A stretch of DNA of 64,000 nucleotides from contig NC_086097.1 of the NCBI RefSeq assembly GCF_963921235.1, forward strand, positions 78,184,001-78,248,000, read 5' to 3'. The translations under genes were made by a program, and so were the position numbers. Positions 7,800 to 61,439 of the stretch are shown here, one piece after another; the stretch's first letter is position 1, and each line of letters begins with the position of its first letter. Source of the DNA: Mobula hypostoma. Lineage: Eukaryota. Below the pieces are notes generated by a model, which ran no database searches, was not told the origin of the DNA, and saw nothing but the letters and a program-made list of their open reading frames with translations.

Positions 7800-8505
7800 C
7801 AAACAATGAAGAGGTGAGCGAAGGCAAAGCAAATTTGAGAGGTGTGCCCTGCTGGTGTGCTGCAAAATCAACACACTTGGAGTTGGAGCTGTGGGGGCTG
7901 GAGTGAACAATTCAGAGAGAAGACGAGGCAGAGGAGTTCCGATGCCAGTCCAAGTGACCTGGGTGCAAGGGTAGATCGCTCTAAGTGCTGAGCCAATTTG
8001 AAGAGGGTGAGAATGGTTTCTTCGGCAGCGAAATCTCAGCACAGAGCAACTTACTGTGGCGGAGCCCGGGTCCGAATGCAAGCTTCAATCCACTGTTCAG
8101 ACAATTTAAACACCAGCCCAGATAGACTGGGGGCTCCTCTCTCCAGGATGCTAGGCTATGAGACTGACCCTGGCTGCTGTGCTTCATGTCTATGAACTTT
8201 GCGACGATTTGCCCCGCTAATATAATGTACTGAATACCGAGGTTTTGGATCTACTCTGGGCTGCTCTGTGGGTTTGGATCCAAGGATTCGTTTTGGTTCA
8301 GAATGCTGTTGTTGTTGTTGTTGTTGTTGCTCTCTTTTACTGTTTGCATGATTTGTGTCTTTTTTTCACTTTTTCTGTGTGCATTGGGAGGGTTGGTCTT
8401 TATTATTTTTTATATTTGGTTCTTTTGGGCTTCTTGCTTTCTGGCTGCCTCCAAGCAAACCAATCTCAAGGTGTATAATTAATACATTTTTTGAATATTT
8501 GAATA
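7800..8505 (+). repeat. Non-coding interspersed repeat (non-autonomous retroposon-like) with internal (GTT)n
   Basis: CpG-rich head, T-rich body, tail 'aatctcaaggtgtataat...tttgaa' similar to the 1-730 element. Confidence 0.4.
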
Positions 8506-9739
8506 CAGAGAGGTATACCAAATATAGAAAAGTGTATCAAATATAGAGAAGTGTACTATCTTACCCCAAACCAGTTTGATTCCCCAAATACAGAGGTTTA
8601 GCAGTTGGGCTGTGCAACCCACAAATATGTTAATGAGTGAGCTCTAGGTAAATGAACTGCATTGTCAGCTATATCGCCAATTAATTCCTGGAAGATCTTC
8701 CTTTGTTCTCTACTTACAATAAAATTTCAAATTAATTTGTCATCATTTAGCCATGTTCCTCATTGGTGACATCACAGCCCCCCAGTCTGTATTAACTGTA
8801 GGTACAATTGAAAGTGAACGTTAAAGAAATAGCCACATCTTGCTTATGCTCCCGATTTTTCATATATTTCCTGCAACGTGCTTCAAATTGTTTTGTTTTC
8901 CTGGTAACAGGCAATGGGGATGTGACCTGCAAAAGATAGGCTGTATGAAGGAAATATTTCCAGATGGAAACCATCTTGAACCAGCACCAGAGGAACTCAC
9001 GAGAAACTGAACAATGTTCATAACACATGGATTGCTAGGAGTACATGTGACTGACAATAGGCCACAAAATTCTTCAACACAGTTTGAAAGATTTATGCAC
9101 TTCAAAGTTGTAAGTACTTTTTCACATCTCTGTACTGCATGAATCAGATGGGGAGGTTGTGCATTCTGTCCACACAGCAGAGACGACACTCAAAGGACAG
9201 CTCAAATTTGCCCAAATGGTATAAGATGGCTACTTTCCTGTTAATATGCAGGAATGCACTCAATACATCCTGGCTGAGATGTTCGCGAACTGCAGGCTCA
9301 GGGAAACCATTGACATGTACAATAATAAACTGCCTTTCCGTAACAATTAATTCCAGCTACAGCAACAGACACATGCTACAACTTAATATCGCTTCTGGAG
9401 CACTCTTTTGCCTTCAATAATAAAAGCAAAAATCACTGCGTACTCAGCTAGACAGGCGACATTAACATTTCTAGGCAATGTTAAAGATGTAACAAGCTTT
9501 AAGAAGGAACAATAAAAAGGTCTGGGTATGGTGGAAAACAGGAGAGGTTAGATAACAACAAGAATGATGTTACAAGGCCAAATGAGGTAGTAACCAGCTA
9601 AGTAAATGAACAAGAAATGGACCAGTGAAAATAGCAAAAAGAAACGCAGATAATGGAAATACAAAATACAAAAAGAAAGTACTGAAAATATACACCAAGT
9701 CAGGTTGCATCCATGGGAAGAGAAAGTCAAAAGTTGCAA

Positions 9740-10375
9740 GTGGATGTATTGTCATATCCACACATTCAGGTATGCATAGGTGCAATGAAAAACTTACTTG
9801 TAGCAGCATCACAGGCACATACCATCAGATAAGCAGCATTTACAAGAGAAACATGGACTACTTAAATGTTATATAAATGTTTTACAGAAAAACAAACAAC
9901 TGGAACAAAACATCTTAGTGCAAATGATGGAAGTGTTCAGTGCTGCTAAACTGTAGTGATTAGGTCAAGAAATATATGGTTGGAGCCAAGCGGTTGTTCT
10001 TGAATCTGGTGGTGTGGGACTTCAGGCTTTTGTACCTCCTGCTCGATGGTAGCTGCAAAAAGATGGTATGGTCCACATGGTGGGGATCTTTGGTAAAAGA
10101 TGTTGCCTTTTTCAGACAGTACCTCCTATAGACACGATGAATGGTGAGGAGGGAAGTAACTGTGATATACTGGCCAAGCCCACTACTCTCTGCAACTTCT
10201 TACGTTCCTGTGAATTCAAGTTGCTGTACCAAACCATTATCCCACCAGTCAGGATTCTTTCAACAGTACATCTTTAGAAGTTTGTTAGCGTGTTCCATCA
10301 CAAGGTGAGTCTTAACCTCTTAAGAGAGTAATGATTTCAGCATATTTTCCTTACGATTGCATCTATATGCAGGGC
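9740..10375 (-). mobile_element. Rex1/Babar-type LINE 3' fragment, decayed
   Basis: Similar to the 3' regions at 41852-42380 and 60900-61310 (ttcaggcttttgtacctcct...gatgg, the LPSGRRY.SLK region). Confidence 0.65.
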
Positions 10376-13300
10376 TAACATTTCAGATTAAAGATGCTCC
10401 ACCTGAAATAACAACTTTGTTTTAGCAATGGACTGGAGTAGGTATGAATGATAACGGTAGAAGTCCTCAGATGCCGTTGTAGGTTTAGAAGCTGTGGTTA
10501 TGATGTGAAACTGTTGAGCTTCATATTGGACCCACTTCGTTTCTGTTCTTCAGTCATTCTCATCTATTCATTTAAAACCCTTTTGAAAGCCCATTACCCT
10601 GAAGTGTTAACATTTTTCCTTTCTCCATAAGTGGCCTGACCTAAAAAACTTTTCTAAATGCCTTGTTTATTAGTTTTACTACAGGTTGTTCAGTAAACAT
10701 CACTAAACAACATCCACCACAGGCTTTGCACTCTTCACACAGTATTCTTACTATCCTTTTGGACATTTGATCCACAGGTTTCAGTGGCAAAATTCCCAGA
10801 AACTGTTTAAAATTTGAAAGTAATTTTATTCTGAGACCATGGAGTCTGTTGTTGAAACAGTGGAAATATTTAGCAAATAACAAATGAAGGAGTTTATAAA
10901 AGAACTTGCACCCCGGTTATAGAAAGGCCACAGCTGATTTGCTTCATATATAAACACTGTATTGTATCTGCTCATATCCATGTTGCGGCTGCAAATAATT
11001 AAGAAAATGTTAGTATAACGTGATCCTTATTGTGACATACCTTTAGGGAATATTGTACAGAAATAGAATATTGTTTTTATGTGCTAACGATGAGGCCTCC
11101 ATTCCCTTTCCTGGTGCTCCTTCTCCATCACATTTGCTATGATGATGAGATGTTCCACACAATTGCCTCTGAAATGCTTTCCTTTCTCTTTTTTCCTTTC
11201 CCTTGACTGTAGCCTGACCTGTTTAGATTTTTTTCTGGCATTTCCTGTTTTTCTTTTAACAAAATAAAATTGGTTAAACAATTTGACAATGAAAGTTACT
11301 TCTTGAAAACATTTCATATGGTCTGATGAAGGTGACAGTTCAGATTTAACTTATTTTAAATATAATGACAAAGTTGAGAAGGACTCAAAACAATTGCTCA
11401 TAATTTGTTGAAACCCATCTGCCCAATCCAAGGCCACCAGGACTTTTCTAACAATGAAGTATAGTTCTGCACAGCTGCAGTCTTTCAACACCGAATTGCA
11501 AAAGGTTTTTGCAAAATCCTAAATGCTGCTAAGACAACAAACCAGGGTAACTAATCTTAGCCAAACCTTAACATAAAGTGAGCATTTTAGTTACAATTAT
11601 CGAGTAATTACTATACATTTATCACACAAATCCTGAATATATCCTCTCCCACCAGCAGGACAAGACATCAGAAGTGGAATTAAATGATATACGGTGGAAA
11701 GGAGAAGTGAGAATCCCCAACTTTCATCCAAGGCATCCAAAGGTTTCATGGAATTAGGTCAAACATGGACAAAGAAATCTTCTCCTGATTTCCGCCTATC
11801 ATCCACTCTCAGTTAATGAATCAAGGATCCTGTACCTTGAACAATACCTTGAAATATCAAAGGCACAGAATACACTCTAGGTGAGAAACTTCATTGTCCA
11901 AGGGTGGTTGAGATTCCTTCACCATTGCTATGTCTAACTCCACTCTTCAAACCCTGTTAAGAGTTTCTATGTTTCAACAAGATCACTTCATATTCTTCTT
12001 GACTCTGGAAAATCTGCTTAATTTCTGCTCAAACAACAAACCAGGATTCAATCTGGCATACTGGTATACTCCTCCCTTACATTAGGTGACTAGATCTGTT
12101 TTTGATGTTCTAAGTGTGGCAATGTCTTGCACAATATAATTGCTATAAGACATCTTTATCCGTATTGAAATCTTGTTCTTTCAGAGTTGAGAAGGAATGT
12201 CTTCTATCAAGGTTCCATGAATCTTTGGAATTCCTTATTCCAATGAATTGTAGAAGCAGAATGATGGAACAGAGTTTGGCATGCAAACTACAGGAGTTTT
12301 AAGGGGTATGTGGAGAGAAAAAAAAAAGATCTTTAAGCCAAGATTGGATCAGTCATGACCTTAAAGGAACAAGCTCAAAGGGTCAGCAGGCCTGTTTGTG
12401 CATTTATTTCTTATGTTCTTATCATGTTATTTAAAAGAAAAGCACTGTTTGCTGTCCAAACTGCTTGCTTAACCTGCATGTTAACCTTCAGTGATTTATG
12501 CACAAAAACACCCAAGTACCTCTCAATACCAATACCTTCCAATCTCTAACCATGTAAAAAGTGGCCCACCCAACTATAGTTTTATCAAAGTGGATTATAC
12601 AACATTTCTAATCATATAATATTCCATCTATTGAGCTCTCACCCATTCAACAAACTAACCTCTATCACCACTGAATCTTCTCCACACCTTTCTCACAACA
12701 TGCACTGTTGCCCCACCGAGCACTGACTCTGTTTATCTTGATGCACTCATCCAAATTTAGCTTGTTGGGTCCCTTGCAGCATCCCAATACTCAAAACACA
12801 ATCACAATATCATAAACACAGATGGTTCTCCCAAAATAAACCCATTTATGTTATTCTCTGTTTTCCCTTTCTCAATCACATGTTGGTCCTATTCAATTGA
12901 AATCTTAAATGTTCCTAGTATTCAGACTGTCTGCTCTTTTAAGGAGCGCACTAATCCTTTTCCGTTCATGTAACACTGTCCTTCACTTCTCTTGTTAACC
13001 ACAAATTGGCTCTCAACTTGCTCTCATCTGTTTTACACCATCACACTTGATGTTTTCAATTCCCACATTTGAATTTAATGAAAGCAACACTGGCTCTGCT
13101 TGAAACCATTTATCATTTCCTAAATTGAGCAGCACAATCCAAATGAATCAAAATTTGCCCCCACTGGAACTCCAAAGCAATTGGAAAACACAACTCAAGT
13201 AACAACAGTAAAAAGTTTAAGTTTTGCTCATATTAACATGCTGCCCATGTAGACCAGTAACAGGCGCATAAGAAAAGATGAATATTTACTCTTTTTTAAT

Positions 13301-13676
13301 TCAGAGTCAAAGCCTGCCATGAAGATGTCAGCCCCTGAAATATTACAAGTTTCTCTTATTTGGTCAAAATGTTTGAAATATTCATAATTGGTGCATGCGT
13401 TTGCTAATAAAGGCAATATCAATGATTCAAGCCATAATATTACAGATTTTGCAAGTATTGGATGTTTTGTTGATAATTAGAAAAAAAAATTGTACATTGA
13501 AAGAAAACTTGAATCTGGTTCAGAAAAGTGGGAGAGTTTGAGAGATTTTGAGAACAGCCTGGAGCTTTTATTCTCCCAGAGGGCATGCATTGAAGGTAAA
13601 AGGGGACAAATTATTTACAAAGAGAGTGGTAGGTGCCTAGAATGCACCACCAGGGTGAAGGTGGATATGATAGAGT

Positions 13677-14590
13677 AACACACACGAGATGCTGGAGGGA
13701 CTCAGCAGGTCAGGCAGCATCTATAGAAATGAATAAATAGTTGACTTTTTGGGCCAAAACCCTTCAACAGGACTGTAAAGTGGAAAGAAAGGTGGAAGAC
13801 GCTGGAATAAAAAGGTGGGGGGTAAGTAAAGGAGTACTTGCTAGAAGGTGATAGGTGAAGCCACACAGGTGGGAAAGGTAAAGGGCTGGAGAAGGAGGAA
13901 TCTGATACGAGAGGAGAATGGACCATGGGAGAAAGAAAAGAAGGAGGAGCACAAGGGGGAGTTGATTGTCTGGTGAGGAGAAGAGGTAAGACGCCAGAGT
14001 GAAGAATAGAAGAGGGAAGAGGGCGGGGAAAAATTACTGGAAGAAGAAATTGATGTTCATACCATCAATTTGGAAGCTACCTAGACAGAATATGAGGTGT
14101 TGCTCCTCCACCATGAGTGTGGCCTCATCATTGAAAAAGAAGAGGCCATGGACCGACATTTTGGATAGGATTGGGAGAGAAAGTAAAGTGGTTGACCACT
14201 GGGAAATTCTGAATTTGGATGATGGAGCAGAGGTGCTCAACAAAGTGTTCCCCCAATTTACGTCAGGTCTCAATGTAGAGGAGGCCATATCAGGATACAA
14301 TAAACAACCCCAACAAATTCTTAGGTGAACTATTACCTCGCCTGGAAGGGCTGTTTGGGGCCCTGAATGGAGGTGAGGGAGAAAGTGAATAGGCAGGTGT
14401 AGCATTGCAGGGATGTGTGCCAGGAGGCAGATTAGTCGGGGAGGAATGAATAGACAAGGAATTTAGAGATAGTGATCCCTACAGAAAGCAGCTTTGGGGG
14501 AGGGAGAGGTAAAGACGTGTTTGGTGGTAGAATCCCATTGAAAATGGCAGAAGTTACAGTAAATAATGTGTTGGATGTGGAAGCTCATGG
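13677..14590 (-). mobile_element. Penelope-like element (PLE) fragment: GIY-YIG C-terminus plus pLTR, inserted in a CR1 tail fragment
   Basis: ORF 14034-14405 ends MSVHGLFFFNDEATLMVEEQHLIFCLGSFQIDGMNINF, matching the PLE endonuclease C-terminus; terminal 'cacacgagatgctggagggactcagcagg' motif; CR1 tail sequence resumes after 14597. Confidence 0.85.
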
Positions 14591-16321
14591 AATGTGCTAG
14601 AGGTGTCTAAGAGGCCCTTAGGTAGACACATAAATAAGTTGAGAGTCGAGGAATACAGACTTGTTTAGGCAGGTAGGATTAGTTTTAATAGACTTTTAAG
14701 ACTTCTAATTACTAGCTTAATTATTTCAATACATTATTGTGTACTAAGGGGCCTGTTTCTATGCTGTACTCTTCAATGAACACCAGAATTTTATGTTAAC
14801 TATCAAACAATGGCAGGGTGCTGAGTAGTGCAGAGGACCAGAAGGGTAATGGAGTGTAGACTCATAGATAATTCAAGAATGCAGGGAAGGAGCTTAAGGC
14901 AAAAAGGATAACTTCCTTTATAAGGACAGAATACAAGAATTCTTGGGTTGCAGATGGGGTGCTGTGTACTGTTCTGGACAACAAGTTACTTATGCCAGTT
15001 TGACAATTGATATACAAGAGATCAATAAGGATGTTGCCTGAACTGCAGACTCTTAAATATGGGGTAAGGCTAGATGCTCTGATATCATTTTCTTTAAGGC
15101 AGAGGAAGATGAGGATGTGATTTTACTGAGGTATTTATAGTTATAAAGTCACTAGAAGGAGTGGATAGAAAGCTATTTCCAAGAACAGCAATAAGTAAGG
15201 TCATAAGCATCCATGGCACTTCCAAGCACCACCTGTCTTCATCTTTCCTTAAAGTGCTCGAGCTGTAAGTGGGTATAAAAATAGAAGGCAAATATTGGGG
15301 TTCCTGGTTATATTTCCTTAATTTTGTTCAGAGCTTCCTTTCCTTGCAAGCAGAGTCAAAAAAGTGAAAGCCAAGCCGCAGCCTGCAGTGCACATGGATA
15401 TTGTAGCCAAAGCTTTCAGCAAGTCTGCCTTAACATCTAGTAAACCAACGTGGACTAAAGGTTCCTCAGAGCTACCCCAGCACACTCTGATGGACCATGG
15501 GGCTCTGTAATAGGCTATCCAAATAGCTTGTGTTTTGAGAAAGAAAAACGCCAGTTTATGTGCAATCAAAGCAATTCACTGAACCCTTGTGTTTTGATGG
15601 TCAAGGAAGGTTTACGAGGAATGACAATGGTCCTGGTGTGGCTGGTTCTGTGCCTTATAGTCTTTAGATGTGGTAAACATCACTGCCACAGGAGTAGAAC
15701 ACATTCATTAATTCTTCAGAATGTTGACAAGCTATGAGATTTCCCCATCAAGACATTGATGTTGTGCTTGAGATCGAATACGAAACATTTCTATATGAGG
15801 GAGTCCATGGCCTTGCAGCAGACAAACAGGATTGTGATGGTACAATTAAAGGGGAACATGCATCACTTAAGTTGTCTGGAATGTGATGATTGCATGATAA
15901 AATAAAAGGGGTTTGGGATGGATATTCCCTTCCTGCGCCAGGGGCCCTCTTCTTTTTTTTCTGCCAAGCTTAGCTTTCTAAACACAAGAGCTGCCATTTG
16001 TAAAGATCAAAAAGTTGTAAGATAAACTTCCATCTGCATTCTTTGTTTAGCTTCTGGTTGAAAATGGAAGCCAGTGTTCAGTTCTTAAAATATACAATAT
16101 ATATACAAACCACAAACCATTTCTGAAACACAAAGTGTTTCCAAAAGATAGGTTCAATTCCTTTAAGATAAAAAGACATACCAATAATACAGATGAACCA
16201 GTCATCTGTCACAGAAATCGAAGACAAAGGAATGGATTTTGGTTCACCAATGGATTTTTTTTTCATGCTTCTTGATATTCCTTACCACATTCCTAATAAG
16301 CCTGAACTGCTCTCTACATTC

Positions 16322-16940
16322 AGACCATAAGATCATAAGGCATAGGAGCAGAATTAGGCCATGATCTGCCCCATCATGTCTGATCTGCCATTCAATCATG
16401 GCTGATCCTTTTTTTTTATCTCCTCCTCAACCTCAGTTCCTGGCCTTCTCCCCGTAATCTTTGATGCCATGTCCAATCAAGAACCTATCAATCTCTGCCT
16501 GAAATATACCCAATGCCCTGGCCTCTACAGTTGCATGTGGCAACAAATTCCATAAGTTCACCACCATTTGGCTAAAGAAATTCCTACGCATCTTTGTTTT
16601 GAAAAGGTGCCCTTCTATCCTGAGGCTGTGCCCTTTTCTCCTAGACTGTCCCACCACGGGAAACATCCTTTCCACATCTACTCTGTCTAGGCCTTTCAAC
16701 ATTCAAAAGGTTGCATTGAGATCCCCCCTCATCCTTCTGAATTCCAGCGAGTACAGACTCAGAGCTATCAAACATTCCTCGTATGATAACCCTTTCATTC
16801 CTAGAATCATTCTTGTGAACCTCCTCTGGATCCTCTCCAGTGCCAGCACATCTTTTCTAAGATGAGGGGCCCAAAACTGTTCACAATACTCAAGGTGAAG
16901 CCTCATCAGTGCTTTATAAAGCCTCAGCATAACATCCTTT
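16322..16940 (-). mobile_element. CR1 LINE 3' fragment
   Basis: ORFs 16703-16930 and 16433-16702: LYKALMRLHLEYCEQFWAPHL...RRFTRM, FFSQMVVNLWNLLP; 'accataaga' tail. Confidence 0.92.
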
Positions 16941-17654
16941 ATACAGTTTATACAGTTAAAGATTTATACAGTTTATTTGCCACTCGGGTGATTTCACACA
17001 CACATGATATTCTTTCAGACATCTTTTAACAAAGACAGTCTTAAAGCTTCTTGGAGACACAGATGCTAGGTACCCACAATTAATACAATGAATCTAACTT
17101 TCCCGAGTACATAAGCCTTCCAAATTATCAGTTATTGATGTGCTACGTGATTGTCTCCATCTGATCTTCAAACTTCCTTGAATAAAGTAACTTAGCTACT
17201 GTTGTCTATTTTTAAACAAGCCAAATTAAATAATCCATTGTCTTATACTGCACCTCTGGGTGCCTAAGGCCAATGCACAGTGCTGTCCTTGTCAACGTGG
17301 AGTGGAGAGCAAGTTTGTAAATCTGGCCAGATCAAAGGATATTGGGAATGGTGGGTGTGGGGCGCTGTGGGACAAGTGGCAAAGAAGAAGTGTCCGGGGT
17401 GGAGGGTGGCATGTGTGCATTCACACCCAGCCCTGAGACACCAGGCAAGGTCATTTGATTCCAAACAATTATTTTATTGATCATTACAGAATGTCTCCCT
17501 GGTGCTTCCCACTTTCTCCACTCTCCCTTTTCCTTTCCCCAACCATGATTCCCCACCCCTGCCCCCTTCCTACTCTCAGTCCACAAAAAAGCCCCATATC
17601 AGAATCAGGTTTATCATCACTCACATATGTCAACAGCAGTACATAAAATTACTA

Positions 17655-17721
17655 GAGTACTGTGCAAAATTCTTAGGCACCCTAGCTATATATATGTGTC
17701 TAAGGCTTTTGCACAGTACTG
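17655..17721. mobile_element. 67-bp palindromic Tc1/mariner-type mini-MITE
   Basis: Arms (g)agtactgtgcaaaattcttaggcac / gtgtctaaggcttttgcacagtactg form an imperfect inverted repeat, flanked by TA on both sides. Confidence 0.7.
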
Positions 17722-17944
17722 TAAATGGAAAGCAGACATCAGTTTGAAGTTGAGAAAACACAGTTTTGCAAACAAGCACTGAACGGAGCCTATCCCTCTG
17801 GAGTCCATTTTTCTGTCTTCAATTTCTGTGATGAATGACTGGTTCATCTGCATTGTTGGTATGTCTTTTTGTCTTACAGGAATTTTATCTGTGTTTGGAA
17901 ATCCTTTGTGTTCTAGAAATGGTTTGTAATTTGAAAACCTTTTA

Positions 17945-42549: not shown

Positions 42550-43409
42550 TGTTACGTACCCCGTAACTGGGTTGCCAAACCAGCAGAAATGGATCACTCA
42601 GTTGGAGTCTGGAGTACTAGAACTAAGAAAGTTTTATTAAGGAAACAAGCAACACAGTAATCGAAAGGATAATAAATGCAACAGTTCAGTGATGATAAAC
42701 ACACATGTGCACAGAATTAAGATAACAGCATCAATCAAGCTCTATCGTTGTCTAGGGGTAAATGACCAATTTCAAAATGACTCAAAGTTCAGTCCAGTTT
42801 AGTAGTTCAGTTCGCAGTAATCGTTGCCATGGCGGTGGACAACGTGGGGGAAGAGAGACATAGAATAGGAACAACTCATCATTCAGCACAGCTTCACTCA
42901 CAGACCAGCGAGATGGCTCACAAACAGCATTTGGGCGGGTCCTTGGTGATGTCACCTGAGGTCACCGACTGTGACCCCTCCTCCAGATGCGGTCGATCCT
43001 CTACAGTGAACCCGGCACCCAGGCAAGGGCGGACACACACCGGGTTCCCGCTGATCGTACCTTTCCACCCTTGTCGTTGTCTGGGACTTCTCACCCACTC
43101 GTGAGAAGCGCACCGCTTCCAGGGTCTCGTTACCTCGGGTGGCGTGTGTGTCTGTCTTAGCGAACCTGTCCCTTTTTATCCCCCTGCTGGGGTATCGCCT
43201 GTCCATCACTTCAAACAGTTCAGGGTTCAAAGGGGGGAGCCGCTCCAGACAGCTCTTCCTCCCACATCCCTTCATTACACATCTCCAGACGCTGCTCCAT
43301 TGTTCCTTATCTCTCCTTCCCCCGAGGGCAGGTGGCAGACCAACTGCTGATGCCACTGATGCTAGCCCAGGCCAGCAAACATCTTAATTTTATGTGTATT
43401 CTCGTAACA
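42550..43409 (-). repeat. 3' LTR (860 bp)
   Basis: Direct repeat of 46543-47402; differences seen at 43003/46996 (A/G) and 43323/47316 (C/T); minus-strand AATAAA near 42633-42638. Confidence 0.97.
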
Positions 43410-43422
43410 CTTCCCCCCTTTA
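43410..43422 (-). other. Polypurine tract (PPT)
   Basis: Minus strand AAAGGGGGGAAG abuts the 3' LTR. Confidence 0.9.
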
Positions 43423-43581
43423 AGGATTTTTACCGGGAGGTAAAAATTACAAACATGACTACATTATCTGATACATACACAATATACATCTTTAACAGTT
43501 ATTTAGCTAATACAGAGAATTTGAAGCTGTCAACACCTTGACAGACAGTCATCACATTTTCTGTTCCTTTTACACGTGTTA

Positions 43582-46443
43582 TTAATAATCCCTTAGACCA
43601 GGCTCCAACTCAGCAAACTTCATAGTGGCCAAAAACACTGATGAATTGCGACCAATGTAACCTCTCATTTGGTTTTGTCCCGGACCACAACAACAAGGGT
43701 CGTCCCATTCCGACTCAATTTTCTCTCGCAAGGGCTTAGTAGGAGGGGGACGGGTATTGACCGCAGAGTTATTGCAAAACTTCCTGCAGTACCCCACCAT
43801 CTCCAAAAGCCTTCTGAGGGCCCTCCTGTCTGTCGGGGTTGGGAGGTCAGCGATAGCCTGCACTGTAGCTTGCATCACTGCCAGCTGCCCCTGTGTCACC
43901 ACAATTCCCAGGTAAGTGACTCTCGTGTGGCCGAATTCATTTTTTTCAAGGTTCACTATCAAGCTGGCTTCAGACAGCCGTGTTAAATTGCCAATACACA
44001 CCTCTGTGTTCATCAGCCCTTTAGTCACTGAATTACTCGAAAAATATGGGTGTTGTTTACTTGGCCGCCCTATTGTAACCGACATAACCCAACGTCCCAG
44101 TTCTTTGCATTTCCTCGGGACAATCAAACACATGGGTGCGAGTCGTTTAATTACTCCTTCGGGGATTAAGGGAGAGACCTTATCAGTAGACCTGGCCAAA
44201 ACAATAGCCTTCTCCCATCTGACCGATCCCATCCTAATCTTTTCAAAATGGTTTTTTCCTCTTATCAAGGGGCCCCTAGCTTCATTGATTTCCACGCTAA
44301 CACCGACTAGGTTTGTTAGCATATCAAAAGCCGGTGACCGTCTCAGTTCGCGTCGGTCATGATCAATAACATTCTTCCCCCTGGGCAGCCGGTAAATCTC
44401 TTTCATGATTCCACCAACTGTTTCCTCCAGCACCGCAAAATGTCCACCGGGGGGTACCTCGTGGGCCATGTTAAAAACCTCATCCCCATAACTCTTTTGC
44501 ACCACCCCCCACTCCTCATCTGCGGATGCTGTACTTGATTTCCCTTTCTTCCTTAGCACCTCCTTATCCGCACAATAGCTTGTCAAGGCTGTGTCAGAGA
44601 GAGCGGTCTCGGCAAAAACCATCAGCCCCTCGTCTCGCTCCTGCGTCTGCACAAATTCTTTCCTGGCTACTGCTACGTCTGTCCCAGCTCCCTCACTACC
44701 TCCTATCTCACTACACCCTGTCTCATACAAGGTTGGCAGAAATGTTTCAGCCAAATTCACCATCGCGGGCGGGGCCTCCATGCTGGCAGGCTGACCCGTC
44801 AATCTCACGACTGGGAACACGATTCCTCCGGCGATGTCATTACCGAGCAAGACTTCCACGTCTTTCATCGGTAATTCGGGCCTCACCCCGATCGTGACTA
44901 GTCCAGAGACCAGGTTGCTCTGTAAATGTATCTGGTGCAAAGGGACTGACTCTGTCCCTTCCCCAACACCTTTGACCTCTACCTCCCCAGTCTGGGTCTC
45001 TGAGCTAAACTCTAATACACTCTTCAGTATTAGTGACTGACACGCTCCCGTGTCTCTCCAGATCCGCACTGGAACTGGTTTTAACCTCTTTTTCACTGAC
45101 ACCAGTCCGGCCGAGATAAACCTCTCGCGCCCTTCCTGGACTTTTTCAGACCTGTCCTTCCCTAGCGGTTCGCTTAACAGCTCGATACAGCCATTCAAAA
45201 TTTCCGCTTTTCCTTTCCCCGTCTCCTTCCTTGGGGCAAAGCACCTGGACGCAAAGTGTCCGACTTTCCCACAATTATAACAGACGACCCCAGGAGACTT
45301 CCTACCAGACTGCTCCCGGTCTACCTTATCCTTTTCACTAGTCCCCGGCTTACTTTCTGACTTTTCCGGTGGACTCTCCCCGCCGTCCTGACTACACTTC
45401 TGGTAGCCTTTACTCGGGGCAATCTTCATTTTATGCGTCAACGCATACTCATCCGCTAACTTAGCAGTTGCGGCTAACGTGGCTGCCTCTTTCTCATCGA
45501 GGTAGGGTCTCATACCCTCAGGGACACAACCTTTAAACTGCTCAATCAGAACCAGTTGCAGCAGTCTGTCATAATCCCCCTCTACCCCTTTCGAGGCGCA
45601 CCAACGCTCACAATATGTTTGCATCTCACGAGCAAACTCCAAATACGTGCGGTCCCACTGCTTCCTCGCATTCCGGAACCTCTGCTGGTATGCCTCCGGG
45701 ACCAACTCATAAGTCCTGAGGATGGCCTCCTTCACCACCTCATACTTCTGGGCATCTTCCGGGGATAAGGCGGAGTAAGCTTGTTGGGCCTTCCCTTTCA
45801 GTACACTCTGAAGTAAAACAACCCACTTATCCCTCGGCCAGTCCTGACTTATAGCTACTTTTTCGAAGTGGAGAAAGTACCGATCCACATCGGTATCGTC
45901 AAATGGGGGAACCAGCCTAACCTCCTGGGTCGCCCGGAACCCTCCACCTTGGTTCGGCACGAGCCCCTGCTCGGCCCTTATCTTTAACTTCTCCAGCTCA
46001 AATTCCCTTTCCCTCTGTTTCTCCTCTCTCTCCAACTGTCTGTCCCTCTCTCTCTCTTCTCTCTCCAACTGTCTTTCTCTCTCTTGCCTTTCTAACTCTT
46101 TCTCTCTCTCCCGCCTTTCTAACTCTCTCTCCTGCCTTTCTAACTGCTTCTCTTCGTGTTCTAACTGCCGTACCCGGAACTCGTGCTCGAGTCTCAGTTT
46201 TTCAAGCTGTACCTGTACCGCGTCTCCAGCAGGTTTTTCAATAGACACCACCCCCAGCTCACCTTGGGGAAACACACCTTTAGATACATAGTGCTCTACA
46301 ATAGCTCTGTGTATCTCCTCTCTCCTCATTGTCGACTTCACCTTAGCAAGATTCACCCGTTTGGCCACAGCTATCAATTCCGATTTCCTGGCATCCTCTA
46401 ATGCCTCCAAGGTCGGCGCCTTTATAAATTCCTCAACCTCCAT
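43582..46443 (-). CDS. 953-aa Gag-protease polyprotein (coiled coil, SCAN-like capsid, CCHC knuckle, aspartic protease) fused in frame to vestigial integrase and RT segments
   Basis: LVPPF...FEKVA...WP...LKGKAQQAY...YELVPEAY..RFR capsid; LIEQF (SCAN-like); CYNCGKVGHFASRC at 45241-45282; RDTGA at about 45046-45054 and LLGND; integrase remnant AHEVPPGGH precedes RT remnants PSKQHPY, LIVNLEKNEFG..VTYLG, LRRLLEMVGYCRKF. Confidence 0.93.
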   Translation of the reverse strand: MEVEEFIKAPTLEALEDARKSELIAVAKRVNLAKVKSTMRREEIHRAIVEHYVSKGVFPQGELGVVSIEKPAGDAVQVQLEKLRLEHEFRVRQLEHEEKQLERQERELERREREKELERQERERQLEREERERDRQLEREEKQREREFELEKLKIRAEQGLVPNQGGGFRATQEVRLVPPFDDTDVDRYFLHFEKVAISQDWPRDKWVVLLQSVLKGKAQQAYSALSPEDAQKYEVVKEAILRTYELVPEAYQQRFRNARKQWDRTYLEFAREMQTYCERWCASKGVEGDYDRLLQLVLIEQFKGCVPEGMRPYLDEKEAATLAATAKLADEYALTHKMKIAPSKGYQKCSQDGGESPPEKSESKPGTSEKDKVDREQSGRKSPGVVCYNCGKVGHFASRCFAPRKETGKGKAEILNGCIELLSEPLGKDRSEKVQEGRERFISAGLVSVKKRLKPVPVRIWRDTGACQSLILKSVLEFSSETQTGEVEVKGVGEGTESVPLHQIHLQSNLVSGLVTIGVRPELPMKDVEVLLGNDIAGGIVFPVVRLTGQPASMEAPPAMVNLAETFLPTLYETGCSEIGGSEGAGTDVAVARKEFVQTQERDEGLMVFAETALSDTALTSYCADKEVLRKKGKSSTASADEEWGVVQKSYGDEVFNMAHEVPPGGHFAVLEETVGGIMKEIYRLPRGKNVIDHDRRELRRSPAFDMLTNLVGVSVEINEARGPLIRGKNHFEKIRMGSVRWEKAIVLARSTDKVSPLIPEGVIKRLAPMCLIVPRKCKELGRWVMSVTIGRPSKQHPYFSSNSVTKGLMNTEVCIGNLTRLSEASLIVNLEKNEFGHTRVTYLGIVVTQGQLAVMQATVQAIADLPTPTDRRALRRLLEMVGYCRKFCNNSAVNTRPPPTKPLREKIESEWDDPCCCGPGQNQMRGYIGRNSSVFLATMKFAELEPGLRDY

Positions 46444-46513
46444 TTCTGCTGTTTGTCTTTTCTTTCTTTCGGGAATTTTAACCCAATCAATTTACTCCGT
46501 CCCAAATTTAGCG

Positions 46514-46538
46514 TTCAAAATCGCGGACGAGAACCCCA
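46514..46538 (-). other. Primer-binding site, tRNA-Pro-like (imperfect)
   Basis: Minus strand TGGGGTTCTCGTCCGCGATTTTGAAC, 4 nt from the 5' LTR, versus the tRNA-Pro complement TGGGGGCTCGTCCGGGATTTGAAC. Confidence 0.8.
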
Positions 46539-46542
46539 CTTA

Positions 46543-47402
46543 TGTTACGTACCCCGTAACTGGGTTGCCAAACCAGCAGAAATGGATCACTCAGTTGGAG
46601 TCTGGAGTACTAGAACTAAGAAAGTTTTATTAAGGAAACAAGCAACACAGTAATCGAAAGGATAATAAATGCAACAGTTCAGTGATGATAAACACACATG
46701 TGCACAGAATTAAGATAACAGCATCAATCAAGCTCTATCGTTGTCTAGGGGTAAATGACCAATTTCAAAATGACTCAAAGTTCAGTCCAGTTTAGTAGTT
46801 CAGTTCGCAGTAATCGTTGCCATGGCGGTGGACAACGTGGGGGAAGAGAGACATAGAATAGGAACAACTCATCATTCAGCACAGCTTCACTCACAGACCA
46901 GCGAGATGGCTCACAAACAGCATTTGGGCGGGTCCTTGGTGATGTCACCTGAGGTCACCGACTGTGACCCCTCCTCCAGATGCGGTCGATCCTCTGCAGT
47001 GAACCCGGCACCCAGGCAAGGGCGGACACACACCGGGTTCCCGCTGATCGTACCTTTCCACCCTTGTCGTTGTCTGGGACTTCTCACCCACTCGTGAGAA
47101 GCGCACCGCTTCCAGGGTCTCGTTACCTCGGGTGGCGTGTGTGTCTGTCTTAGCGAACCTGTCCCTTTTTATCCCCCTGCTGGGGTATCGCCTGTCCATC
47201 ACTTCAAACAGTTCAGGGTTCAAAGGGGGGAGCCGCTCCAGACAGCTCTTCCTCCCACATCCCTTCATTACACATCTCCAGACGCTGCTCCATTGTTCCT
47301 TATCTCTCCTTCCCCTGAGGGCAGGTGGCAGACCAACTGCTGATGCCACTGATGCTAGCCCAGGCCAGCAAACATCTTAATTTTATGTGTATTCTCGTAA
47401 CA
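46543..47402 (-). repeat. 5' LTR (860 bp)
   Basis: Direct repeat of 42550-43409, adjacent to the PBS. Confidence 0.97.
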
Positions 47403-51779: not shown

Positions 51780-53130
51780 GGAGCATCCAGGTGGATATAA
51801 AATCACTGAGTACACGATTGCCTCAGAATCGCGTGATACGCTACACGTATCAATACCACAATCCGGCACAGCAGAGTGGATGAAGTAAACGGCCGTGCTC
51901 AGACCTGCAGAGCAGGTAACAACAAACACTGACTGGTGCTCCCGCCCAGACACACATGCCGAGGTTGTTGATGTCTGCACTGGTGACAGCTGAGTCGTCC
52001 TGAAGTTCCCCGGCTGACCTTTGGCACATTTCATTTAGTGTGCAATGCATGGTGCTCAGAAAGCGAACGCACTTAACACGATCAGCCGCACTGGGGCCGG
52101 CTGGGAGAAGTGAATGAGGGAAAATAACATGGGTTTGACAGGATTTTGTTTATTCCTACTGCAGGTTTGGTCGGGATACATCTGTTATGCTGTTTGTTAA
52201 CTGGATTACTTACTTGTGTTGTGTTACATTAGAAAATGGGGTAACACGCTTCTTAGTTATGCATATGAGGATATCCGATTGTTAACTTCCAATTTTGGGG
52301 TATTAACTGCAAGGTGCGCGCCGTTTTCAACAACATTGAGAGTATTTAATATCAGACGTCGGGCAAGGGAAAGGGGGGAGAAAGCGAGTGGAGGTAGGCA
52401 GAAGGGATTGCGGGAGAGGAGGAGTGGGTGAGGGGTTGGGGTGGGAGGGGGGAGAGAAAGCGAGTGGAGGTAGGCAGAAGGGATTGCGGAGGGAGGAGTG
52501 GGTGAGGGGTTGGGGTGGGAGGGGGAGAGAAAGCGAGTGGAGGTAGGCAGAAGGGATTGCGGGAGAGGAGGAGTGGGTGAGGGGTTGGGGTGGGAGGGGG
52601 GAGAGAAAGCGAGTGGAGGTAGGCAGAAGGGATTGCGGGAGAGGAGGAGTGGGTGAGGGGTTGGGGTGGGAGGGGGAGAGAAAGCGAGTGGAGGTAGGCA
52701 GAAGGGATTGCGGGAGAGGAGGAGTGGGTGAGGGGTTGGGGTGGAAGGGGGAGAGAAAGAGAGTGGAGGTAGGCAGAAGGGATTGCGGGAGAGGAGGAGT
52801 GGGTGAGGGGTTGGGGTGGGAGGGGGGAGAGAAAGCGAGTGGAGGTAGGCAGAAGGGATTGCGGGAGAGGAGGAGTGGGTGAGGGGTTGGGGTGGAAGGG
52901 GGAGAGAAAGCGAGTGGAGGTAGGCAGAAGGGATTGCGGGAGAGGAGGAGTGGGTGAGGGGTTGGGGTGGGAGGAGCGGGTTTCAGCTGAGCCTGACACC
53001 AGCTCCGCTCCGAGCGACTTCTGCGAAACTGGGCACAGAAGTCCTGACCCTGTGACTCTGACTGACGGGCAGAAAGGGTCTGCAGAAGCCCAGATGTTGG
53101 CCGAAATCCCGAGATCCCGCCCAAAGAATT
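51780..53130. promoter_or_regulatory. CpG-enriched, apparently unique sequence flanking a minisatellite; possible promoter or first-exon region
   Basis: Local CpG density is higher than the surrounding non-TE DNA; GC-box-like cccgccc near 51941 and 53116; no TE motifs recognised. Confidence 0.35.
52372..52975 (+). repeat. G-rich minisatellite, 73-76-bp unit, 8 copies
   Basis: Unit aaagcgagtggaggtaggcagaagggattgcgggagaggaggagtgggtgaggggttggggtgggagggg(g)gag starts at 52381, 52457, 52530, 52606, 52681, 52756, 52832, 52907. Confidence 0.97.
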
Positions 53131-56110: not shown

Positions 56111-56681
56111 AAAAGCATTATATGGATTTGGTGCCAGATGGTTCTAGTTTTATTGCTTCTCTATTTCAGTGTACAAGTGAGTGGACCGCTCAGCATGTTG
56201 AATTAATACTTGAATGCGTGTCCACTTGTGTCATTTTCTGATCCCATTTCAGATTTACAGCATACTTGTCCCTTTTCCCAATCATGAACATATTTCCAAT
56301 GCACAACCAATTTTGCAGGTCTGCTGTACTTCAGAAACAGAACCAGGTTTATATCATTGGCATTTATCATGAAATTTGTTGTTTTGCAACACCACTGCAG
56401 TGCAATAATAATATTTTAAAAGCTATAAATAACAGTTATATATACTGTATGTGTGTGTGTGTATCTGCCTATAAAAGCTATTCATCTCTCTTGGAAGTTT
56501 TCATGTTTTATTGTTTCATAATATTGAATCACAGTGGATTTAATTTGGCTTTTTTGACACAGATCAACAGGAAAAGACTCTTTTATGTCCAAGTTAAAAC
56601 AGATCTCTATAAAGTGATCTAAATTAATTACAAATATAAAACACTAAATAATTGATTGCATAATTACTCACCCCCTTCAAG

Positions 56682-57697
56682 TCAGTATTTAGTAGATGCA
56701 CCTTTGGAGCAATTACAGCCTTGATTGAGTCTGTGTGGATGGGTCTCTATCAGCTTTGCAAATCTGGACACTGCAAATTTTCCTCTTTCTTCTTTACAAA
56801 ACTGCTCAAGCTCTGTCAAATTGCGTGAGGATTGCGAGTAAACAGCCCTTTTCAAGTCCAGCCACAAATTCTCAGTTGAATTGAGGTCTGGACTCTGACA
56901 TGGCCACTCCAGGACATTACCTTTGTTGTTTTTTAAGCCATTACTGTGTAGCTTTGGCTTTATGCTTAGGGTCATTGTCTTGCTAGAACAAATCTCCCAA
57001 GTTGCAGTCCTCTTTCAGACTGCATCAGGTTTTCCTCCCGGATTTCTCCGTATTTTGCTGTATTCATTTTACCTTCTACCTTCACAAGCCTTCCAGGGCC
57101 TGCTACAGTGAAACATCCCCACAGCATGATGCAGTCACCACCATGCTTCATGGTAGGGATGGTCTCCTTGAAGATGTGCGAAGTTTGCCTTACTCCAAAC
57201 ATAGCTTTTAGTCTGATGGCCAAAAAGCCCAGTTATAGTTTCACCAGACCATAGAACCTTCTTCCATTTGATTTTAGAGTCTCCCACATGCCTTCTGGCA
57301 AACTCTAGCTGAGATTTCATGTGAGTTTTTTTCCTGTGGCTTTCTCTTTGCCACTCTCCCATAAAACTGTGACTGGTGAAGCATCCTAGCAACAGTTGTT
57401 GTCCGTGTAGTCTCTCCTATCTTAGCCACTGAAGATTGTAACTTCTCCAGAGTTGTCATAGGTCTCTTGGTGGCCTCCCTCACTAGTCCTCTTCTTGCAC
57501 AGTTACTCAGTTATTGAGGAATACCTACTCTAAGCAGATTTACAGCTGCGTCATATTCCTACCATTTCTTGATGATTGACTCAACTGTAATCCAATGGAT
57601 AATCAGTGACTTAGAAATTTTCTTGAATCCATCTCCTGACTTGTGCTTTTCAATAACCTTTCAGTGGAGTTGCTTGGAATGTTCTTTTGTCTTCCTA
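56682..57697 (-). pseudogene. Tc1 DD34E transposase pseudogene
   Basis: Frameshifted fragments KTKEHSKQL..KVIEKHKSG, WKKVLWSGET, KHGGDCIMLWGCF, VLEWPCQSPDLNSTENLW, KGASTKY. Confidence 0.92.
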
Positions 57698-57743
57698 GTG
57701 TAGTTTTTGCCAGGATACTGACTCACAAGCAGTTGGATCTTCC

Positions 57744-59732
57744 TCCTCTTCCTCCTCTTCTTCTTTTTTGTTTTATGGCTGTTGGCAACCAATTATCTGT
57801 GCATTACCGCCAACTGCTAGACTTCATGTGTTCCAACCAAATATGTCCTGGAGTTCTCTACTTTAGACAATCTAGTTCAGCCTGCAGTTCTTTATTAGCA
57901 TCACTCTGTAGTTGCAATTCCTCGTGAATGCTTAATGCGCTCATTAGATAATGCCGCAAAATGCTATTCTTCCCTAACTTTGTCACATGTTTTTGCGAAG
58001 TTGCATTACCTCAATCACATTGATTTCATCTACATCATTTGTAGGACTAAAATTGTCTTGCTAAAGAATAGTAATTATCGCGCGTTATACTTTTAAAATT
58101 GCTGTTTTTCCAAGTCTATCTGCTTTTTCAGGTTTTCCTTTTCTTGGATTGTAGCCTGCAGTTGTTTACTGAGACCTCAGAGTTCTTCATTTGCTTCCAT
58201 GTTTTCATCTTATAATCTGAATGTAGATAATTCACTTTGCAACAAATTCCTTTTCCATTTGTATCCTTGTAATAATTTCCTCCATTTTCCAATCTCTTCC
58301 CAACTCACTCTTGTTCTTGTCAGGTACTTCTATTTGTTGTTGGAGTTCTGCACATTTACTCTGGGCTTCAACCATAAAATCTGAGGATTTTCCTTAAGTT
58401 CTGAAACATTTCTTAAATTCCTGACCATTTGCGATAAATATACTGCCATTAAGATTCCATCTCCCCTGCCTGTGAACTGTTGTATCCTCCATTCAGCATT
58501 TCTTTGACTTCTTCCAACCTAATTCCTTTAATACCAAGATACTTTTCTGCAGACTTGACGTTATTTTTAATTTTCTCAGTTCTTTTGCTTGTTTGCGCTG
58601 AACAATTAATTGCATCCACCATAAAAAACACGAAATCCTTTCTACACATTAATAGTGTATCCTTATTTTTCATATTACAACTCTCACAATTCACCAGTTT
58701 ATTATTCCCTGTATTTGTTTGCTTGACAGCCTTTTTTTCAGCAAATTCTTTCACTGCCTCTACATAACTGATTCCTTGAGTTACTTTTACATATTGTATC
58801 TCAGCCGCCTTCTTGCTATAAATGCACCCTCGATAAGCTGCGCTGTGTTCCTCGCCACAATTGCAGCATTTCAGCCTAGCTCCCGCTTCACATTTCCCAT
58901 ATTCATGTTCTCCAGCGCATCTCCCACATCTTTGTTTCCCTCTGCAGACCACCGCAATGTGCCCGAATTTCTGACATTTATAGCATCTTAAAGGCGGTGG
59001 TATATATATTCTAACCGCATAACACATATACCCTAAGTAAACGTTAGTCGGCAATCTCTCTTCATCAAAGTTAATCATTACCGATAAACTATCACACGTT
59101 TTCCCATCTCTTGTAACTTTCAAACGTTTGGCCTCAATAATTTTTGCTCCTTTTATGTTCTGTTTAATCTCATCCATAGTAACTTTTGTTGGTATCCCCG
59201 AAATAACTTTAGTCCGCTTTCTATTGTTGGGTATTGAGCATTGTACTTCTTTGCCATCTATTTTACATAATCTTATCACTTGGCCTTGCTGAGCACTATC
59301 CCGACAAATCACTAATAGTGATTCATTTCGTAAAATCTTTGCTCCTTTAACCTCACCTATAATTTTGTTGAGCATCTTCGTCAAATGAATCAGGTTCCAG
59401 TCACCAAAAGATGCCCCGTCTTCACTTAGTTTTATAATTGCTTTAATCTCATCTTCTTTCCATTGTTTTGCTGTCCTGTTTTGATCATCTGCTGATTCCT
59501 CAGAGTCTGATATCCCATACCTCTGCTTTCTTTTCTTCCTCTTTCCATTCCGTTCCTCTTTCCCACCAATCTCCATCTCTAGTTCACTTTCACTCTCGCC
59601 AAAAACTTCCCTCAACGGCTCTTTCCTTGATGTTCTCTCTCTCCACCATTTTCCAGTCACAATTCGACTCTCTTCGAACAACTCAATTTACTTTCCACCA
59701 CAACACCCAGCAGCAGCCCTATCCCATCAGCC
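57744..59732 (-). mobile_element. ORF1-only non-autonomous Nimb/I-group LINE derivative (~2 kb)
   Basis: TSD agcagttgga(t/c)cttcc at 57728-57743 and 59733-59748; (GAA/GGA)n tail; 3' hairpin gttggc...gccaac at 57781-57814; open ORF1; no RT. Confidence 0.85.
58449..59681 (-). CDS. LINE ORF1 (Gag-like nucleic-acid chaperone with three CCHC-type knuckles); first ATG at 59576
   Basis: PPPLRCYKCQKFGHIAVVC-RGKQRCGRCAGEHEYGKC-LKCCNCGEEHSAAYRGC; ISYVEAVK; stop overlaps a downstream ATG (TAATG). Confidence 0.88.
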   Translation of the reverse strand: MFEESRIVTGKWWRERTSRKEPLREVFGESESELEMEIGGKEERNGKRKKRKQRYGISDSEESADDQNRTAKQWKEDEIKAIIKLSEDGASFGDWNLIHLTKMLNKIIGEVKGAKILRNESLLVICRDSAQQGQVIRLCKIDGKEVQCSIPNNRKRTKVISGIPTKVTMDEIKQNIKGAKIIEAKRLKVTRDGKTCDSLSVMINFDEERLPTNVYLGYMCYAVRIYIPPPLRCYKCQKFGHIAVVCRGKQRCGRCAGEHEYGKCEAGARLKCCNCGEEHSAAYRGCIYSKKAAEIQYVKVTQGISYVEAVKEFAEKKAVKQTNTGNNKLVNCESCNMKNKDTLLMCRKDFVFFMVDAINCSAQTSKRTEKIKNNVKSAEKYLGIKGIRLEEVKEMLNGGYNSSQAGEMES

Positions 59733-60089
59733 AGCAGTTGGACCTTCCAGATACAGATGTATTTTTACTACAATCAATTGAAACATCTTGATTGCACTCA
59801 GTGATCTCCATTTAACTAATTATGTGACTTCTAAAACCAATTGGCTGCACCAGTGATGATTTGGTTTTCAAGAAAGGGGGGTGAATACTTATGTATTCAA
59901 TTATTTTGAGTTTTATGTTTGTAATTAATTTAGATCACTTTGTAGAGATGTGTTTTCATTTTAGCACGAAAGACTTTTTCTGTTGATCAGTGTCAAAAAA
60001 GCCAAATTAAATCCATTGTGATTCAACGTTGTAAAACAATATACATGAAAACTTCCAAGGGGGGTGAATACTTGTTATAGGCACTGTAT

Positions 60090-61310
60090 ATGTACTTGCT
60101 CCCACTTGTTTCAAGAGGGCTATAATTATACCAGTGCCCAAGAAGAGTAGTGAAAGTTGCCTTAAGGACATTCGTCCAATAGCGCTCACATCTATGGTGA
60201 TGATATGCTTTGAGAGGTTGGTCATGGCTAGGATCAACTCCTGTCTCAGCAAGGAACTGGACCCACTGCAACTTACTATCACCACAATAGATCTACAGCA
60301 GACACAATCTCAATGGCACTTCACACAGCCTAGGATCACCTGGACAATACAAATACCTATATCAGGATGCTGTTCATTTACTATACCTCAGCATTTAACA
60401 CTATCATTCATCCAGTCCTGATCGATAAGTTACAGAACCTGGGCCTCTGTATTTCTCTCTGCAATTGGATCCTTGACTTCCCAACCGGAAGACCACAATC
60501 TATGCGGATTGGTAATAACATATCCACTGTGCTGACAATCAATAATGGCACACCTCAGGGATGTGTGCTTAGCCCACTGCTCTACTCTCTCTATAGCCAA
60601 GACTGTGTGTCTAGGCATAGCTCAAATGCCATCTATAAATTTGCTGATGATACAACTATTGTTGGCAGAATCTCTGATGGCGACGAGACAGTGTACAGGA
60701 GCGAGATAGACCAGCTAGTTGAGTGGTGTCGTAGCAACAACCTTGCACTCAAGGTTAATCGAGGGAACACAAACAAATCATTGTAGAGGGATCAGAAGTG
60801 GAAAAAGTGAGCAATTTCAAGTTCTTGGGTGTCAAAATCTCTGAGGATCTAACCTACTTCCTACATACTGATGCAGCTATAAAGAAGGCAAGACAGCAGT
60901 TACATTTCATTAAGAGTTTGTGGAGATTTGGTTTATCACCAAAAACACTCAAAAACTTCTCCAGATGTACTGTGGAGAGCACTCTGAGAGGCTGCATCAC
61001 TGTCTGGTATTTGGGGTGGGGGGGGGATCTACTGCACAGGATCAAAAGAAGCTAAAAAAAGTTGTAAAATTAGTCAGTTCCATCATGGGTACTTGCCTCC
61101 ATAGTATCCGAGACATCTTCAAGGAACAGTGCCTCAGAGAGGCATCCATTATTAAGGACCCTCATCATCCAAAACATGCCCTCTTCTCACTGTTACCATC
61201 AGAAAGGAAGTACAGAAGCCTGAAGGCACGCACCCAGCAATATTCAGGAACAGCTTCTTCCCCTCTACCATCCGATTTCTAAATGGACATTGAACCCATT
61301 GACACAACCT
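60090..61310 (+). mobile_element. Rex1/Babar LINE RT-to-3' fragment
   Basis: PVPKK...[55 protein letters not shown]; frameshifted. Confidence 0.92.
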
Positions 61311-61439
61311 CATGTTTTATATATAAATTAATAGTGCAAAAATTAGAGTTAATGTACATGGATTCATTATCCATTTGGAAATCTGATGTTTTGGCAGCAG
61401 GGAAGAAGCTTTTCCTCAAATGTTGAGTGTATCTTCAGG

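Follow-up and report, generated by a model that had tools for sequence, protein, structure and literature searches.

A 1,989-bp insert on the minus strand (57744-59732) of the window, i.e. the whole 64,000-nucleotide stretch of Mobula hypostoma DNA analysed here (NC_086097.1, positions 78,184,001 to 78,248,000), is a Nimb/I-type LINE derivative that lies inside a decayed Tc1 element and has an ORF1 followed by scraps of ORF2. The question raised by this locus is whether such an insert is a full-length element that decayed in place or a member of an ORF1-only family that spread as a unit, as a preliminary description had proposed, and what occupies the place of ORF2.

The insert and its recipient transposon

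The features identified are listed in Table 1. The insert is bounded by 16-bp direct repeats with one mismatch and a spacing of 2005, in agreement with the preliminary description, and the chance of such a repeat at a given pair of positions is ~4e-8. At the empty Tc1 sites present in public contigs, exactly 2005 bases are skipped (joint 57725>59731), and the letters of these sites suggest that the target repeat may be 18 bp long with two mismatches. The (GAA/GGA)n tail described earlier is present, and in the region 57726-57760 the CTTCC at the end of the target repeat continues this tail, as would be expected if the tail had paired with the target during priming. The G-rich leader at the opposite end is presumed from its sequence to be a putative internal promoter.

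The inverted repeats of the recipient Tc1 element (56466-56675 and 59877-60083) are 14.5% apart, i.e. ~7% each, and a DDE_3 match was detected in it at E 1.2e-4, which is below the Pfam cut-off. Four family contigs in a public assembly (X13, see below) diverge from the insert by 3.9%, and in comparison with the 14.5% between the inverted repeats, the Tc1 element looks older than the insert. No second copy of the insert was found in a self-search of the 64-kb window.

Table 1. Coordinates of the features of the insert and of its recipient element (positions in the window).
Feature	Position	Strand	Basis or remarks
Decayed Tc1/mariner DNA transposon, recipient of the insert	56466..60083	.	Inverted repeats and DDE_3
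Target-site duplication, 5′ side	59733..59748	.	Direct-repeat search; may extend to 59731 (18 bp)
5′ leader, G-rich	59650..59732	-	Sequence; weak alignment to the L001 5′ region
ORF1	58449..59687	-	Stop-to-stop frame of 412 codons with two RRM-like domains in tandem, three zinc knuckles, and a helical C-terminus
ORF2 endonuclease N-terminus remnant, with deletions	58360..58450	-	~15 bases shared with the beginning of the GCC2 piece
Host GCC2 (GCC185) coding fragment	57864..58375	-	Sense to the element; Hemitrygon GCC2 residues about 610-822
~40 bases holding the junction from GCC2 to the 3′ end, no confident match	57824..57863	-	Stretch left between the GCC2 alignment and the L001 3′ match
Nimb/I-type 3′ terminal segment	57769..57823	-	Conserved stem 57776-57812
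Tail, A-rich and then (GAA/GGA)n	57744..57768	-	Sequence; runs into the target repeat; L001-L004 also GAA-tailed
Target-site duplication, 3′ side	57728..57743	.	Direct-repeat search; may extend to 57726

Several other repeats were observed in the window. The LTR element located about 10 kb from the insert (42550-47402), which is young and has 860-bp LTRs that are 99.8% identical, had been described as Gag-only, a term that does not strictly apply: one 969-codon frame carries SCAN and zinc-knuckle domains and a protease-like stretch, and short RT remnants are apparent by eye, so that it is better regarded as a gag-pro element with a shrunken pol. A tandem array of ~75-bp units (95-98% alike) occupies 52367-52974, and self-inverted stretches are located near LINE fragments at 61243-61419 (70% over 184) and 17653-17723 (78% over 72).

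Host GCC2 coding sequence at the place of ORF2

About 30 codons of the ORF2 endonuclease remain behind ORF1, and 18 of 32 residues in this scrap are identical to the start of ORF2 in L001, a related element; the endonuclease fragments reported at this position were thus correctly recognized. The following ~500 bp had been described as lacking RT, and tblastn with eight autonomous ORF2 proteins indeed gave no match in 57600-59900 at E<=1, but the stretch is not featureless: the middle of the insert is host GCC2 coding sequence. The middle reading (90 residues) had two matches among 54 candidates, both of which are ray GCC2 proteins (Mobula hypostoma and Hemitrygon akajei), and the clusters of both also include M. 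birostris and Hypanus sabinus. The tblastn E values of the GCC2 match ranged from 1e-15 to 1e-18, and in a frameshift-aware alignment of Hemitrygon GCC2 residues 610-822 on 58369-57864, 119 of 166 residues were identical. Pfam searches of the short middle frames gave sub-threshold coiled-coil noise only.

The GCC2 piece is damaged by a 41-codon deletion, five frameshifts, and five stops. Because identity among the GCC2 proteins of rays is 89-97% in the captured region, most of the divergence of the fragment arose after it left the gene. The match begins within the last endonuclease motif, where ~15 bases can be read as either sequence. Since the captured GCC2 stands where ORF2 was, the insert is not a plain internal deletion. 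The orientation of the coding fragment, sense to the element, fits an RNA template without proving one, and the captured region presumably lies within one large exon. GCC2 is a Golgi tether gene that is not known to have a role in the piRNA pathway.

The 3′ end and the parent element

The 3′ terminal segment, which is presumed to be the putative recognition signal for ORF2, is 80% identical to L001 over 81 columns and 72% identical to L002-L004 over 76. Its stem is kept in the relatives as TGGCGGT with ACCGCCA (n=3 sequences), one pair being broken in the present copy. The gttggc…gccaac hairpin that had been proposed for this end proved to be a folding of this copy alone and was rejected as a conserved structure (z -1.09; 29 of 200 shuffles fold equally well).

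L001 is a two-ORF element of ~5 kb, the ORF2 of which encodes an endonuclease, an RT, and an RNase H. The insert matches it in ORF1 (65% DNA identity) and in the last 80 bases (80%), with no match between. L001-L004 are distant relatives from metagenome contigs and not the true parent of the insert; the architecture of L001 points to an RNase H-bearing LINE of the I group as the parent. Pfam searches identified APE, RT, and RNase H domains in the ORF2s of L001, L002, and L011, and two-ORF relatives that combine these domains with a three-knuckle ORF1 fit Nimb and, equally, the I clade. The parent clade is likely to be Nimb, as judged from the architecture. The search for a partner element, in which the query was a contig ORF2 whose named relatives are teleost, yielded no cartilaginous fish among the named proteins in the best 120 of 1,269 ORF2 matches, most of which are nameless.

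The ray ORF1 (58449-59687) and the corresponding part of L001 (600-1640) share 59% identity in protein and 65% in DNA, which is high for the ray-teleost split. Horizontal transfer of the parent element is possible from these values.

ORF1

Relatives of ORF1 numbered 120 among 2,960 candidates; the best (P0001/L001) is 59% identical, and the named strong ones are from teleosts. The protein contains three Cys/His knuckles, two of which are CCHC knuckles identified by pattern at residues 235 and 254 and the third of which was recognized from the alignment. The structure model (pLDDT 55, pTM 0.28) is usable only at residues about 80-210, and, with the low overall confidence of the model, it matches tandem RRM domains (Foldseek, best E 4e-7). 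The TAATG overlap that had been noted is present at the end of ORF1, and in L001 the ATG of ORF2 precedes the ORF1 stop; in the insert this overlap is without consequence because ORF2 is dead.

The earlier reading of an open three-knuckle ORF1 holds for the frame and the knuckles, but the gene is not clean. A frameshift-aware alignment to P0004 is free of breaks over 373 codons, and a frameshift near 59604, i.e. within the first 15 codons, was placed in three of five homologue alignments. This slip puts the upstream ATG at 59649, the probable natural start judged from the alignments, out of frame, and the first in-frame ATG is located at 59576, where the Met is conserved; the stretch around the slip is predicted to be disordered. 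In addition, several conserved residues are altered in this copy only.

A multi-copy family in public assemblies

In total, 20 of the 24 listed public runs (8 studies) contain part of the element, with a best share of 0.50, and the runs of organisms B-F contain 0.18-0.41 of the sampled element words. Four runs, namely X1, X13, X17, and X21, whose species may differ from that of the window, were aligned to the element at 82% likeness. The element is present in three of these (X1, X13, and X17) and is essentially missing from X21 (raw reads, organism G), in which 4 of 10,085,944 reads were aligned, all <90% alike, which says nothing about copy number.

In X1, all 30 bins of the element are covered. 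The summed depth is 9,900-17,700 in the six GCC2 bins, 9,100-37,000 in the ORF1 bins, and about 8,500-8,700 at both element ends, whereas the single-copy reference (8 long contigs listed) has a depth of 8-20. The GCC2 part would thus correspond to about 170-900 single-copy equivalents, a rough value, and because summed depth is not copy number, only a family of probably hundreds of copies is claimed. The depth crosses the endonuclease/GCC2 junction without a step (12,500, 15,700, and 11,000 in successive bins), which makes an abundant close sibling continuing into ORF2 unlikely. At the 5′ end (59588-59665) the depth is similar to that at the 3′ end, and this flat profile suggests that the copies are mostly full length.

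X13 is a skin-metagenome assembly of 17.5 million letters, in which only abundant host repeats should assemble. Its depth is 11-19 over most of the element, and a 761-nt contig (depth 12.7) was aligned to 57799-58409, from which it departs by 26 other letters and 5 gap letters. It reaches from the 3′ segment through the whole GCC2 piece into the endonuclease scrap and so includes both junctions. X17, in which all 30 bins are also covered, was counted as a second assembly and not as evidence for transcription, its RNA nature being only guessed. Single contigs in X17 skip 182 bases (57923-58106) and 78 bases (58247-58326) within the GCC2 piece. Splicing was rejected for these skips, whose ends are not of the splice type on the strand of the element; they are read as deletion variants, and shorter variants of the GCC2-bearing family may exist.

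The X13 contig across both junctions and the X1 depth without a step establish that multiple ~2-kb copies with the same internal junctions exist, as had been predicted. The opposite possibility, that the deletion pattern is unique to this locus, was examined in the same public assemblies, and a family was seen instead. None of the displayed contig alignments contained a further copy together with a flank and a target duplication of its own, and no pile of loose ends was found at the element ends among the 18 entries listed of 513, tail-repeat entries being excluded.

Probable selection on ORF1

The breaks in the GCC2 piece provide a measure for those in ORF1. One X17 contig (record 18) is aligned to 57880-58109 with 20 other letters and 0 gap letters, which indicates that four of the five GCC2 frameshifts are shared; likewise, in an X13 contig (record 9), the gap letters number only 2 once one in-frame triplet is set aside. 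At a rate of 4 frameshifts per 166 codons, the expected number for the 373 aligned ORF1 codons is 9, and 0 were observed (P about 1e-4). Shared GCC2 frameshifts together with the lack of breaks in 373 codons indicate that selection probably preserved ORF1 in the source copies.

The ORF1 differences point in the same direction. Those private to this copy, i.e. sites at which 95% or more of the other depth differs from it, change the amino acid in 9 or 10 of 10 cases, whereas silent changes make up 6 of the 9 found to vary among copies (Fisher P 0.009-0.02). This comparison is based on 19 ORF1 rows among 40 of 318 listed, a small and support-selected sample that includes some CpG sites and to which, at 82% likeness, contigs of related families may have added. 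For 9 of these 10 private differences, including the one at invariant G122, the family residue agrees with more of 14 homologues (the teleost ones) than does the residue of this copy. Private differences that mostly change amino acids are as neutral decay gives. In simulations with 3.5-5.5% neutral change, 12-26% of the copies still had the frame open, and the open frame in this copy alone therefore proves little. It is in the source copies, and not in the present damaged copy, that ORF1 would probably have been selected.

Origin of the family and alternative explanations

We consider it probable that the insert belongs to an ORF1-only LINE family in which ORF2 was replaced by GCC2 sequence, probably by two template switches, and which has spread with its own chaperone and the ORF2 of a partner. 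On this account, hardly any of ORF2 would have remained in a Nimb/I-type element, and GCC2 coding sequence of about 0.5-0.65 kb would have taken its place, most likely as reverse transcription passed from the Nimb 3′ end to a GCC2 RNA and then to the Nimb 5′ part. The resulting chimera would have retained the 5′ leader, ORF1, the 3′ stem, and the GAA tail. Source copies would make their own ORF1 protein, which would package their own RNA, and the ORF2 of an autonomous relative would recognize the 3′ end and insert the 2-kb RNA by target-primed reverse transcription; the borrowing of ORF2 proposed earlier is retained by analogy with known LINE biology. In the source lineage, ORF1 would then have been maintained while damage accumulated in GCC2 and the endonuclease scrap as neutral filler, and the family would have expanded to probably hundreds of mostly full-length copies, of which the copy at 57744-59732 would have landed in an already dead Tc1 element and decayed afterwards. 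The proposal of an ORF1-only parasite in a non-L1 LINE clade therefore stands with respect to a multi-copy family with the same junctions, but not with respect to a plain deletion of ORF2.

It is unlikely, though it accounts for part of the data, that the chimera formed in one step from a GCC2 pseudogene fragment that was already broken and from the 5′ part and 3′ end of a young Nimb, and spread in a SINE-like manner with both proteins supplied in trans, ORF1 being intact only because of its youth in the chimera. The shared GCC2 breaks would then need no selection on ORF1, the deletions in the endonuclease scrap and in GCC2 could be slips of a single reverse-transcription event, and the probable N-terminal frameshift of ORF1 would fit if it were family-wide. 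However, the endonuclease scrap beside ORF1 is also deleted, X13 records 9 and 10 have few or no gaps there relative to this copy, and the shared ORF1 variants lean towards silent changes.

A bolder version of the favoured account, in which the ORF1-only LINE outnumbered or outlived its parent, ORF1 was under cis-selection, and GCC2 was favoured at capture as a small-RNA camouflage or as a source of anti-GCC2 piRNAs, is improbable. The high divergence of the fragment from GCC2 argues against small-RNA targeting of GCC2 by it at present; in the available text on Drosophila telomeric elements (PMC13534243), host-directed piRNAs were almost none at 79-82% identity.

Amplification as a passenger, i.e. 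a single insertion of the chimera into Tc1 that was copied by Tc1 DNA transposition or segmental duplication, is quite improbable. The recipient Tc1 is very abundant (X1 depth about 250,000-330,000, ~20 times that of the insert), and the flanks of other copies were not seen in the contig alignments. Against this, the Tc1 copy, at 7% per repeat, appears to predate the spread of the insert (~4%), every listed joint across the insertion site is an empty Tc1 copy, and the shared ORF1 variants are mostly silent (P 0.01 for 6 of 9 versus 25%), which passive copying does not predict. Finally, decay confined to this locus, or a chimera formed only once from a full-length Nimb, can scarcely be right in spite of the private damage in this copy, since decay of ORF2 cannot yield GCC2 sequence, the depth has no step at the endonuclease/GCC2 junction, and a single X13 contig spans both junctions. 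Duplications of host GCC2, as a source of that depth, would not connect endonuclease with 3′ Nimb sequence.

Comparison with known elements

Non-autonomous LINEs in which ORF1 is present include HeT-A (Jockey), HAL1 (L1), and Ag-Sponge (CR1), as given in the available text of Kojima (2018; PMC5786205), in which 'Nimb' has 0 occurrences; HAL1 is also described as an ORF1-present element of the L1 clade in the available part of PMC5753468. The idea of an ORF1-only derivative outside L1 is thus less new than the preliminary description implied, HeT-A and Ag-Sponge being listed already in that text. As in these elements, the 5′ part with ORF1 and a parental-type 3′ end with its tail are kept, a functional ORF2 has been lost, and many copies share the same junctions. 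The insert is unlike them in that its parent is Nimb/I-type with RNase H-bearing relatives and in that its gap has been filled by host coding sequence instead of being closed by deletion. Nor is it HAL1 proper, as its relatives have a knuckle ORF1, an endonuclease-RT-RNase H ORF2, and GAA tails. L1 elements are not known to have a knuckle ORF1, an RNase H-bearing ORF2, or GAA tails.

Host-gene capture is known from the telomeric elements of Drosophila. TART-A with nxf2 is given as the first such case in the available text of PMC7785250, and captures of aub, piwi, and CG12520 by telomeric Jockey elements are reported in that of PMC13534243, according to which ~40% of the families are ORF1-only, 20 carry host fragments of 140-235 bp, and, in the legend of its Fig. 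4, some capture elements lack ORF2. The insert resembles these captures in being derived from an I-group LINE and in that a piece of host coding sequence is a constant component of the family. It is unlike them in that it was found in a vertebrate and is apparently dispersed, that its fragment is longer (512 bp versus the 140-235 bp reported there) and stands at the place of ORF2, and that this fragment comes from a Golgi tether gene and is heavily decayed.

Among autonomous fish Nimb/I elements (Nimb-2_DR and L001-L004), likeness extends to ORF1 (59%), the 3′ 80 bases (72-80%), the GAA tail, and a long target duplication, but these elements have a 1,250-aa ORF2 with endonuclease, RT, and RNase H, which the insert lacks. 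The target duplications of Nimb-2_DR are mostly 10-15 bp (70%; available text of PMC4245944), compared with 16-18 bp in the single copy of the insert. In the literature searched, no description of the GCC2-bearing family or of an ORF1-only case in vertebrate Nimb/I was found, and the family may already be present in a repeat library such as Repbase or Dfam.

Implications

On the favoured reading, in which an ORF1-only LINE with GCC2 in place of ORF2 spread with a partner ORF2, the range of ORF1-only parasitic LINEs would grow to include a vertebrate member of the Nimb/I lineage, and an ORF1-only LINE would be combined with host-gene capture, a pairing that we found in the literature only for the Drosophila telomeric elements. 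For rays, GCC2-bearing copies can confuse the annotation of GCC2 and the mapping of reads to it. The family would also hold a built-in control for the standing question of whether non-autonomous LINEs need ORF1 in cis: ORF1 and a neutral coding passenger are carried in the same RNA, so that their decay may be compared across hundreds of copies, and the two are similar in base composition (A 0.39 and 0.41 in ORF1 and the GCC2 passenger, respectively).
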